64,000 nucleotides of DNA. Source: Pedosphaera sp. (GTDB lineage: Bacteria > Verrucomicrobiota > Verrucomicrobiia > Limisphaerales > SIBH01). Location of the stretch: assembly GCA_031414955.1 (NCBI GenBank), contig JANOQV010000056.1, forward strand, positions 1 to 64,000, in the 5' to 3' direction. Positions 9,406-11,950 of the stretch are shown here, piece by piece; position 1 is the first letter of the stretch; every line of letters begins with the position of its first letter. The notes below the pieces were generated by a model. That model was not told the DNA's origin, did no database searches, and saw only the letters and a list, made by a program, of their open reading frames with translations. The position numbers and the translations under genes are program-made.

Positions 9406-11949
9406 CTACCGGTCTGCAAACTCCGCCACGAGTTTGCCATCCTTGCCGTTCCAGACGCGCAGCACGCCATCGGCTCCGCCAGCGATGACCACGCTGCCGT
9501 CCGGAGTGGCGGCGGCGGCGTTGACGTAATCCGTCGCGCCGGCAAACGAGCGCACGCGATCACCCTTCTCCTTGATCAGCGCGACCTGCCCGTCGCCGGA
9601 GCAGAGCACGGCTTCGTCGCTCACGCCGACGAAGGTCGCTGCCGTCACTTCCTTGCCGAAGCCTTCGATGTTCTTGCGCCGCTCGCCCGTGGTGGCGTCC
9701 CAGACTTTGGCGACGTTGTCGGCGCCGGCGGTCACGAGCGTCCGTCCGTCGCGCTTCCACGCCACGCCGAGGACGTGATGGGTGTGGCCTTCGAGCGTCC
9801 TCACGACCTTGCCGCTCACGAGGTCGGTCACCTTGCCCAGCCGATCCGCGCCGCCGGAGGCGAGGAATTTGCCGTCTGCTGAAACATCGAGCGCGAGGAC
9901 GGAATCGCTGTGGACGTTTGGCAGTTCGCGCACGAACGCGCCGTCCCCGGTGCGCCACAACTTGATCTCGCCGCCGCGGGTCGGCTCGCCGCCGCCGGTG
10001 AACAACTGCTTTCCGTCGGAAGCGAACCGCAAAGCGTTGACGCGGTCGGCGAGCGGCGAACGCTGGTCGCCGCCGATGGTGTGACTCAAAGCCCAGGAAG
10101 GTTTGAGGTTCAAGACCGAGCCGCCAGAGGCGCTGGAAACAACCAGCGTGTCGGCATTCGACCAGGCGAGCCAGCCGGCGGAATTGTGGCCGGTGGCGAT
10201 GGACTCCAGCGCCGCGCCAGATTTCGCGTTCCACAGATTAACCAGACCAGCCTCGGCCAGCGCGGCGAGCAACGCCTCATCCGGTGAGAAAGCGGCGGCG
10301 CGAACCGGTCGGTCGGCGCGCTCCAGCGCAAGCTTGGCCGACTCCGCCGCTGCCTTCGCCTCGGTGGCCTGCTGCTCGGCGGCCGTCACGGCGGCCTTTG
10401 CATTCTCCAGAGCGGTTTTGATTTTCTGTTCGGCGCGAGTGGCAAGATTCATTTCGTTCTCGGCGGTCGAGTGCGCGGCCTGGGCTTTCTTGAACTCCTT
10501 TTCCGTTTCGGTCAGCGACTTGCTGGTGGCGGCGAGTTTTTCGCTGGCGGCCTTGTGCTGGTTCTTCAACTCGGCGGGCAGCTTGTCGAACTCTGCCTTG
10601 GCCGTGGCGAGCGCGTTGGACTTGGAAGCGAGTTCGGCGACGAGTTTCTCCGCCTTGCGCTTATCGGTCGCGTCCTTGGCTGGCTTGGCGGCGGTGGTGG
10701 CGTTCGTCAGATTGGTCTCGGCGACGGCAATCTTCGTCAGCGCAGCTTTGATCTGGGGATCGATTTCATTGAGCACACGGGCGGCGGCGTTCTTTGCGTC
10801 AGTGGCGTTGGTCAGCGCGCTTTGCTTCTCACGGAAAATCTTTTCCAGGATGGCGTTGGTGGCGGTGCTTTTGGCCACGCGCGTGGCGGCGTTGGTCTGG
10901 TTGGTCTCCGCGGTCTTGAGTCCGGCCTTGCGGTAATCCATCTCGGAGCGCGCGAAACTCAACTCACGTTCCGCCTCGGCCTGGGCGAAGCGCAATCCGC
11001 CATGCAGCTTGAACGCGGCAAGGCGCTGGGTGGAAACATTGAGCAGTCGAAGCTCGCCGTTGGTGACGAGGGTGGCGAGTTTGTTCGTCTCGGCAATCGC
11101 AGACGGGCTGGCACCATTCGCAGCCTGCGCCACGAGGTTTGTCACCGGCGCGCGCCGCCAAAACTTCACCTCGCGATAGCCGCCCGACGCCAGCACCGCG
11201 CCATCCAGACTGAAGGCGAGGGAGTTCACGGTGTCGCGATGGGCGGCGCGAATGGGCGCATCCTCCAGTCGCGCGACGAGGCGGCTGGCCGGCAGTTCAT
11301 AGATCGAAATCTGGTTGCCGCGTCCACAGGCGGCGAACCGGCCGTCGCGCGTCACGGCCACGGCGTAGATGGCGTTCAATCCCGCTGGCATGGGCTGCCA
11401 GGTGATGGGGATGCTGGCCCGCACTTCGCCCTTCGCGCCCTGCTCGATCCAGAGCTGAAGCAATCCGAGTTCCTCCGGCCGGAGTGCCACGGCGGCGACC
11501 TTGTTGTCCGGCGGCGGCATGATCATCTCCGGGTCGCGGTGCGCGGCGGCCTTGAGCAGCAGGCTGTCGTTTGGTTTCTTCGGCACGACAGACGGACCAG
11601 AGTCACCGCCTTTGAGAATCGTCTGAGGTGTTTCGAGAATCAGCCCGCCCTTGGCCTTGGTCTGGTTGTGGCAGGCCAGGCAGTTGTTCCTGAGCACGGG
11701 CAAAATCTCCCGCTCGAATTCCACCGGGCCGGAGTGCTTGATCTTGGCGATGGGCAGACTTTTCGGTGGCGGCGTGGCGGCGGGAGCGGAAAAGGCGAGG
11801 AAGAGAATGACGAATGACGAATGACGAATGACGAGAGGTAAAACGCAGCGAGCGAACTGCGATGAGCGGAGCAGACGGATCAGCACTGCCAGTCGTCGGG
11901 GCGCTTGTTCTTTTCCGTTCTTCGTCATTTGGCCTTTGTCATTCGTCAT
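9406..11949 (-). CDS. Planctomycete-type cytochrome c (PSCyt1) + coiled coil + WD40 repeat protein
   Basis: FEREILPVLRNNCLACH..GGL.L..GGDSG..MPP..WIEQGA; several WD40 repeats (GHTHHVLGVAW..AKVWD); Ala/Lys-rich coiled coil. Confidence 0.9.
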   Translation of the reverse strand: MTNDKGQMTKNGKEQAPRRLAVLIRLLRSSQFARCVLPLVIRHSSFVILFLAFSAPAATPPPKSLPIAKIKHSGPVEFEREILPVLRNNCLACHNQTKAKGGLILETPQTILKGGDSGPSVVPKKPNDSLLLKAAAHRDPEMIMPPPDNKVAAVALRPEELGLLQLWIEQGAKGEVRASIPITWQPMPAGLNAIYAVAVTRDGRFAACGRGNQISIYELPASRLVARLEDAPIRAAHRDTVNSLAFSLDGAVLASGGYREVKFWRRAPVTNLVAQAANGASPSAIAETNKLATLVTNGELRLLNVSTQRLAAFKLHGGLRFAQAEAERELSFARSEMDYRKAGLKTAETNQTNAATRVAKSTATNAILEKIFREKQSALTNATDAKNAAARVLNEIDPQIKAALTKIAVAETNLTNATTAAKPAKDATDKRKAEKLVAELASKSNALATAKAEFDKLPAELKNQHKAASEKLAATSKSLTETEKEFKKAQAAHSTAENEMNLATRAEQKIKTALENAKAAVTAAEQQATEAKAAAESAKLALERADRPVRAAAFSPDEALLAALAEAGLVNLWNAKSGAALESIATGHNSAGWLAWSNADTLVVSSASGGSVLNLKPSWALSHTIGGDQRSPLADRVNALRFASDGKQLFTGGGEPTRGGEIKLWRTGDGAFVRELPNVHSDSVLALDVSADGKFLASGGADRLGKVTDLVSGKVVRTLEGHTHHVLGVAWKRDGRTLVTAGADNVAKVWDATTGERRKNIEGFGKEVTAATFVGVSDEAVLCSGDGQVALIKEKGDRVRSFAGATDYVNAAAATPDGSVVIAGGADGVLRVWNGKDGKLVAEFADR

Positions 11950-11950
11950 T
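11805..11950. repeat. Heptamer (GAATGAC) inverted-repeat element at a gene junction
   Basis: (gaatgac)x4 at 11805-11834 and complementary arm ttcgtcatttggcctttgtcattcgtcatt at 11921-11950. Confidence 0.88.

Follow-up and report, generated by a model that had tools for sequence, protein, structure and literature searches.

The DNA analysed here, a 64,000-bp stretch of contig JANOQV010000056.1 of Pedosphaera sp. (the window), carries a palindrome of tandem GAATGAC-type heptamers at the junction of two overlapping genes of the minus strand. The upstream gene ends, and a cytochrome c-WD40 gene begins, within the first arm of the palindrome. This raises the question of whether stop, start and signal peptide reached the junction with the repeat, as the original prediction held, or were already there when the repeat arrived. 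The second answer appears probable: the element belongs to a family of heptamer hairpins dispersed through the genome, and it likely landed on a pre-existing ATGA overlap and was likely retained since its sequence is open to translating ribosomes.

A dispersed family of heptamer palindromes

In the genome from which the window comes (G000), 32 arms of the GAATGAC type were found within a wider class, NAANNNC, represented by 610 arms in 6.55 Mb compared with 56 per 3 Mb of Markov sequence. Arm pairs were oriented head-to-head in 172 cases and tail-to-tail in one. After merging, 122 palindromes were recognized among 360 arm clusters by a pattern that required three units in both arms, with some copies missed. 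This genome-wide collection, proposed together with the original prediction, confirmed that the repeat is not a chance arrangement. The length of the elements varied from about 70 to 290 bp across the family, most of those listed being 110-170 bp long.

The palindromes were located between co-directional genes in 97 cases, between divergent genes in 15, inside genes in six and at contig edges in three. Only 1 of the 122 occupied a convergent junction, a class that comprised 635 of the 4407 background junctions. The strict GAATGAC pattern had at least one match in 10 of 11 same-genus genomes and none in four other genomes of the family or order, and a search of 200 genomes of the phylum detected the paired pattern in three.

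Unpaired arrays were also observed. A solo T-rich arm (L283, G000:C40:5953-5980) fills the gap of two ribosomal-protein-like genes, which we take from their translations to be rpsK and rpsD, and has neither a partner arm nor a bridging start. In the window, additional perfect heptamer arrays at 26690-26721 and 38199-38231 (GTCCAAG and AGTCCAA, respectively) were left unpaired by the search pattern.

Open reading frames across the hairpins

In 66 of the 97 co-directional elements, the beginning falls between positions -12 and +35 relative to the upstream stop, and the next gene follows closely. At 49 of these 66 junctions the upstream gene ends in ATGA or GTGA, compared with 375 of 1188 element-free gaps of 70-330 nt. 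In a single-start test, in which the frame was followed from the overlapped start, 38 of the 49 elements were bridged and seven had a stop inside. The bridged elements comprised 30 of the relay type, with the frame stopping within -6 to +11 of the next ATG (at +4 in 15 of them), and eight in which the frame was fused with the next gene. The other two frames stop inside the hairpin in 27 and 25 of the 49 cases. A half-swap permutation null gave 18.5 +/- 3.0 bridged elements with a maximum of 28 in 2000 permutations, and against the 38 observed this makes selection for an open frame across such hairpins clear at the level of the family. In this family-wide form, the earlier proposal that selection keeps such repeats translated held up. 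Judging from the open frames and their phase, ribosomes would be expected to translate across the elements.

When any start near the stop was allowed, 51 of 66 elements were bridged, compared with 230 of 1188 element-free gaps. At junctions with ATGA at both ends, the start-to-start distance was in the relay phase in 16 of 20 cases; an ATGA at the downstream start within 45 nt was present at 20 of the 49 junctions, which selection explains as well as duplication. In the relatives, 101 loci were reduced to 38 distinct palindromes, 36 of them co-directional, and, with five set aside as far from genes, 20 of the remaining 31 were bridged.

Only 335 of 3468 starts had Shine-Dalgarno motifs, so translational coupling would matter more in this genome; the 16S 3' end for an anti-Shine-Dalgarno check was looked for and not found. 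Ribosomes ending the upstream gene would reinitiate at the overlap and open up the hairpin, so that the downstream gene stays coupled, and copies breaking the path of the ribosome would be purged. Fusion would be tolerated mainly where cleavage of a signal peptide removes the extension.

The junction with the cytochrome c-WD40 gene

The element at the junction is 147 bp long with a loop of 86 bases. The features of the locus are as follows.

9406..11949, minus strand: downstream gene, 847 amino acids (aa), with a planctomycete cytochrome c domain (PSCyt1; PF07635, residues 90-148) and WD40 repeats, starting at ATG 11949
11779..11949, minus strand: predicted 57-residue leader/signal peptide ending ..FVILFLAFSAPA, assigned by eye and hydropathy
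11805..11834, minus strand: T-rich partner arm, (GTCATTC) x 4.3 (perfect GAATGAC copies), reading VIRHSSFVI, of which FVI opens the predicted hydrophobic core; LFLAFSAPA comes next, beyond the arm
11835..11920, minus strand: loop of unique sequence with the gene frame open, containing GTG 11886, the third possible start
11921..11951, minus strand: A-rich arm of the units AAATGAC, GAATGAC, AAAGGCC and AAATGAC followed by GAA (read from 11951 to 11921), encoding MTNDKGQMTK from ATG 11949
11925..11942, minus strand: five-codon open reading frame (ORF) MTKAK* from the out-of-frame ATG 11942 of unit 2, whose TGA overlaps the in-frame ATG 11928 of unit 4; second possible route into the gene
11931..11937, minus strand: unit 3, AAAGGCC, with GGC where TGA is expected; sole unit in the frame of ATG 11949
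11946..11949, minus strand: ATGA overlap, joining the upstream stop (TGA 11948-11946) and the likely downstream start; same junction in repeat-free orthologs
11946..14222, minus strand: upstream gene, 758 aa, ending ..APAK*, without a family match; upstream in most orthologous loci

The arm sequence, the TGA ending the upstream gene and the ATG starting the downstream gene agreed with the original prediction, which made no mention of the in-frame ATG 11928 and GTG 11886 or of the out-of-frame ATG 11942. Its label 'PPC' for the upstream gene was left unconfirmed, with no Pfam or NCBIfam family found at E <= 0.001.

The repeat would very likely be translated at this locus, because no in-frame ATG, GTG or TTG is present between the second arm and the predicted cleavage site. 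All candidate starts are located upstream of the second arm, which would therefore be translated from any of them, provided that the protein has a signal peptide. The hairpin RNA was predicted to form a single long fold of -55.8 kcal/mol (z -2.9; as good in 0 of 200 shuffles), in which all four candidate starts are paired. Unwinding of this fold would let ribosomes reach the next gene, and cleavage of the signal peptide is predicted to remove the long leader as well.

No ATGA, looked for as a MIRU-like tetranucleotide direct repeat, follows the second arm. Rfam gave nothing above the gathering threshold at the locus, only a chance match to a microRNA precursor (23.7 bits vs 96). DNA contigs of runs X1 and X2, possibly the source of the window itself, showed 0 differences but join only inside the perfect arm, and those of runs X3 and X4 leave the loop uncovered. 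Family searches in the window gave PF07635, DUF1549/1553 and DUF1501, a gene content that suggests a host in the Verrucomicrobiota. In a 2544-aa gene of the window, a repeat SPSPLNGER..PHPQSLSPLRGEG was observed twice in frame (2522-2549 and 5667-5689).

In-frame TGA triplets and the choice of the start codon

Unit 3 had been described as the place where the one in-frame stop was edited out. It proved to be the only unit whose middle triplet (11934-11932) is in frame with ATG 11949, and that triplet is GGC as stated. A depletion of TGA on the coding strand and inside genes emerged from two comparisons. The purity of TGA-family arms was 0.60 on the coding strand vs 0.84 (n = 35, p = 0.0009), with no such strand bias in stop-free subfamilies (0.45 vs 0.39, n = 105, p = 0.13). 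In copies inside genes, TGA was kept in 0 of 4 in-frame units vs 7 of 10 out-of-frame units. The notion of an edit made at this place fared worse. GGC differs from TGA by two base changes and is present in 20 arm units genome-wide; such a unit is found in frame here and in a fused leader of a relative (L168), and C30 and C280 carry it out of frame. Rather than a purpose-made edit, unit 3 is probably a family-pool variant that passed the filter.

Several points weigh against arrival at an existing overlap and retention through an open frame. Genes and starts came from our own hexamer caller (4720 genes), not from a validated annotator, and the position filter removed 31 of the 97 co-directional elements before counting. 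Unbridged elements amounted to 11 of 49 (strict) or 15 of 66 (loose) in the genome of the window and to 11 of 31 in the relatives, which are kin and not independent, and in which many GAATGAC arms retain the stop (MTNDE*), with bridging only from an ATG further on. No target-site duplication was visible at the locus. A frame-specific loss of TGA from the overlapped start was not significant, 13 of 28 in-frame units keeping TGA vs 34 of 58 out of frame (p = 0.36), because MTNDE* is still present in many arms, whose bridging frame opens at a later unit. The start could also be ATG 11928 or GTG 11886, leaving unit 3 untranslated in the gene frame; this unit is relevant only if ATG 11949 is used.

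The last two points would suit an explanation in which the variant unit is neutral, translation beginning at GTG 11886 or at ATG 11928, the latter reached through MTKAK* or used directly with AAAGG located four bases ahead of it, and GGC being a mere family variant. ATG 11928 and GTG 11886 share the gene frame, and MTKAK*, which ends on ATG 11928, provides a route into the gene independent of the GGC unit. The solo arm L283 has a GAATTCC variant on the untranslated strand, and one same-genus ortholog (G009) restarts after a kept stop. Such neutrality is nevertheless considered unlikely, as an ATGA start at exactly this position is seen more often than any other arrangement in orthologs (25 of 55) and the coding-strand depletion of TGA is confined to the stop-bearing family.

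The overlap and the signal peptide in orthologs

Four of the five same-genus orthologs have no repeat and show the same ..K*/start overlap with a signal peptide of their own, e.g., MKLVALSGAVALALTFFCTVTGA. A first ortholog set comprised 20 loci, with the upstream gene missing in three. A metagenome set comprised 80 loci; after removal of 23 without the upstream gene and two without a usable N-terminal match, 55 were scored, near-duplicates among them. The start was overlapped in 26 of these 55 (25 at -4 and one at -1), and this palindrome was found in none. The overlap and the signal peptide are thus older than the repeat, and the element as their origin at this locus was rejected, since repeat-free orthologs possess both. 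In other lineages (L082, L083, L117, L043 and L046), unrelated palindromes of REP-like and 8-base-unit types were observed in frame in the cytochrome c-WD40 leader.

In G009, the remaining same-genus ortholog, GAATGAC arms are present at the junction together with a retained in-frame TAA and, one codon later, a restart ATG; a host hydrophobic core is located behind the arm. In a tree of 16 rows chosen by the authors (midpoint root, no clade test), G000 grouped (100/99) with four metagenome orthologs without this repeat and not with G009. A single insertion shared by G000 and G009 was therefore unsupported, and their separation implies that the repeat came to each independently or was lost several times. 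In the nearest orthologs of the tree, the corresponding leader has unrelated palindromes in frame or no palindrome at all. The cytochrome c-WD40 leader is a tolerant landing site.

The partner arm had been taken for the hydrophobic region of the signal peptide. It does encode VIRHSSFVI ahead of LFLAFSAPA, but only FVI belongs to the best hydrophobic window, FVILFLAFS (hydropathy 2.86), which is followed by APA/AT and consists of three arm residues and six host residues. The position of FVILFLAFS matches that of the ortholog signal peptides, and the 57-residue length of the leader, judged by eye and hydropathy, is atypical. The mean hydropathy of the GTCATTC arm (VIRHSSF) is +0.31, among the lowest of ten subfamilies, the best of which reach 2.1-2.3.

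A portable cassette that brought the stop, start and signal peptide to the junction, and whose one in-frame stop was edited out, is on this evidence more doubtful still and largely refuted for this locus. Each GAATGAC unit is itself an ATGA overlap, ready to serve as stop and start, unit 3 is the altered unit, and the fused leader L168 likewise has GAA GGC in frame; a palindrome of another subfamily also forms a whole leader at 41419 in the window and in 8 of 10 same-genus orthologs. Against this stand the orthologs described above, the contribution of FVI alone after RHSS, the stop kept within the same repeat in G009 and the occurrence of GGC out of frame. Retention of the hairpin for a regulatory role in the RNA (in processing or stability, or in hiding the start until upstream ribosomes arrive, with the open frame secondary) agrees with the strong fold pairing all four candidate starts and with the effect on transcript stability or coupling proposed for cyanobacterial heptamer hairpins (accessible text of PMC2670836), but is very improbable given that the element is patchy in orthologs, replaced by unrelated palindromes or nothing, and that coding-strand changes such as GGC and TTC disrupt pairing.

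Heptamer palindromes as predicted export signals at other loci

If elements arrive at existing overlaps and are kept through readthrough, as favoured here, subfamilies with a strongly hydrophobic T-rich arm could replace the native hydrophobic core, and the GAATGAC subfamily at the present junction would add three residues. In nine of ten fused cases no ATG is located close behind the arm, and by visual inspection the leader ends in a motif resembling a signal-peptide cleavage site; the remaining case, a Gfo/Idh/MocA gene, has an ATG of its own. At 41419-41580 of the window (plus strand), a palindrome makes up the whole signal peptide of a 381-aa protein with a prenyltransferase fold, with few host residues before the cleavage site. 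This leader is palindrome-made in G000 and in the eight orthologs mentioned, with different units in each, and one more is decayed. Short signal peptides of the ordinary kind are present in the G003 ortholog and at three outgroup loci, and in two orthologs a second hairpin is in frame inside the loop.

Two further leaders of heptamer palindromes starting at an ATGA overlap were observed in the window, one at 1464-1680 (plus strand), with an arm-derived leader also in three relatives, and one at 53290-53475 (minus strand), common to G008. The counterparts of the 1464 and 53475 genes in relatives begin with a leader of similar type or with an ordinary signal peptide. The proposal of a portable coupling and export cassette therefore stands for bridging across the family and for the whole signal peptide at 41419, but not for the origin of the overlap and signal at the cytochrome c-WD40 locus; it fits the 41419, 53475 and 1464 subfamilies better than this locus. 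The signal-peptide heuristic passed 1167 of 3468 genes, which is too loose for an enrichment test, and genes behind relay-type elements passed it at the background rate (18 of 53).

Mobility and association with PF05635 genes

A link to Y1 (RAYT-type) transposases was rejected, as none of the 12 PF01797 matches was flanked by heptamer arrays (0 of 12 with period-7 flanks above 0.64). PF05635, the family of four-helix-bundle, 23S rRNA intervening-sequence proteins, was put to the same flank test. Period-7 arrays flanked three of the four PF05635 genes of the G000 genome, and in five relatives 14 of 27 PF05635 genes had period-7 flanks compared with 11 of 1500 ordinary genes. These genes are located between or beside heptamer arrays at gene junctions (G000:C217:29050, C137:15599, C241:18056; L303-L331), with GAATGAC arms surrounding them in L312 and L321 and CAAGCTC arms at C241 of the G000 genome.

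The cytochrome c-WD40 locus is like these cassettes in that the same heptamer family flanks PF05635 genes, and unlike them in that its 86-base loop is geneless; none of the four PF05635 matches of the genome is on this contig. The element at the locus could be at most an empty form of a PF05635 cassette. For the family, a tentative and rather speculative view sees heptamer hairpins as empty versions of a relocating cassette whose full version carries a four-helix-bundle (23S intervening-sequence type) gene. Such hairpins would target stop/start overlaps and be made harmless by throw-away relay ORFs that pass ribosomes on to the next gene, and their basic arm and hydrophobic mirror arm would have repeatedly turned them into signal peptides of exported proteins. 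In a separate family, three of four PF13366 (GxxExxY-type) genes (G000:C19:21052, C301:22897 and C184:108917) were flanked by inverted arrays of ~9-base units, as judged by eye.

Relation to known repeat systems

The element appears to work like a MIRU, without being one, and to be built like an STRR hairpin. MIRUs, or mycobacterial interspersed repetitive units, are credited to Supply et al. (1997). The comparisons that follow refer to the accessible parts of the cited papers. MIRUs are small dispersed operon repeats with an internal ORF that overlaps the neighbouring genes at -4 (PMC12548453, PMC3184786), and they insert at start codons, carrying an ORF coupled at -4 (PMC12548453, PMC3184786, PMC4213456). 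Their insertion is thought to spare downstream expression because the internal ORF overlaps the neighbouring genes (PMC12548453, PMC3184786). At family level the heptamer elements are similar, with an internal ORF that overlaps both the stop before it and the start after it (30 of 49 relay, 15 at +4). At the present locus, in contrast, the ORF is fused with the next gene, and the element is longer (147 bp here, about 70-290 bp across the family) than the 40-100 bp of MIRUs. The inverted tandem heptamer arms with variable units, the unique loops, the signal-peptide fusions of some copies and the non-mycobacterial host are further differences.

The unit TTCGTCA is presumably one base off the STRR2 consensus, a source for which was sought and not found. 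Inverted heptamer arrays of GGGAATC are located near stops and starts in Xanthomonas (PMC4692102) and occur also in Beggiatoaceae (PMC4679880), and the STRR hairpins of filamentous cyanobacteria have 7-base units, with coupling only suggested (PMC2670836). The present family shares with the Xanthomonas arrays and STRR the 7-base tandem units that pair as an inverted hairpin (PMC4692102, PMC2670836) and the preference for co-directional gaps, with the first arm at or close to the stop codon and the second immediately ahead of the next gene. The unit here is not the GGGAATC or GGGGA(C/T)T of Xanthomonas (PMC4692102). In their accessible text, those arrays are treated as non-coding DNA or RNA structures, with no bridging ORF or signal peptide reported. 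A literature search in which most subscription journals were not represented yielded no paper on bridging ORFs or signal peptides in heptamer palindromes.

An enterobacterial RU-2 repeat is fused into the predicted signal peptide of YPO1552 (PMC2759123), and REPs and RPEs occur inside genes, with in-frame REPs in Opitutus (PMC3733652). As with RU-2, the repeat is read in frame within a predicted export signal, and homologs have unrelated signal sequences. RU-2 and REPs are fixed-sequence MITE- or REP-like units, whereas the mirror arms here encode a front that is basic/polar and a back that is hydrophobic, with units that vary between orthologs while the frame is kept. GTAG/CGTC REPs are single palindromes of 20-40 bp, unlike the 147-bp element with its tandem arms.

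The family-wide pattern is the main result, and the locus that raised the question is a modest, weaker example of it, its overlap and most of its signal being the host's. At 41419 of the window, repeat DNA stands in for signal peptides across a genus. For annotation, dozens of ORFs of 30-60 codons and long odd leaders would be real, yet without a protein function of their own. Heptamer repeats are common in bacteria and largely unexplained, and the counts presented here offer a testable reason for their position and decay, namely selection for the path of the ribosome.

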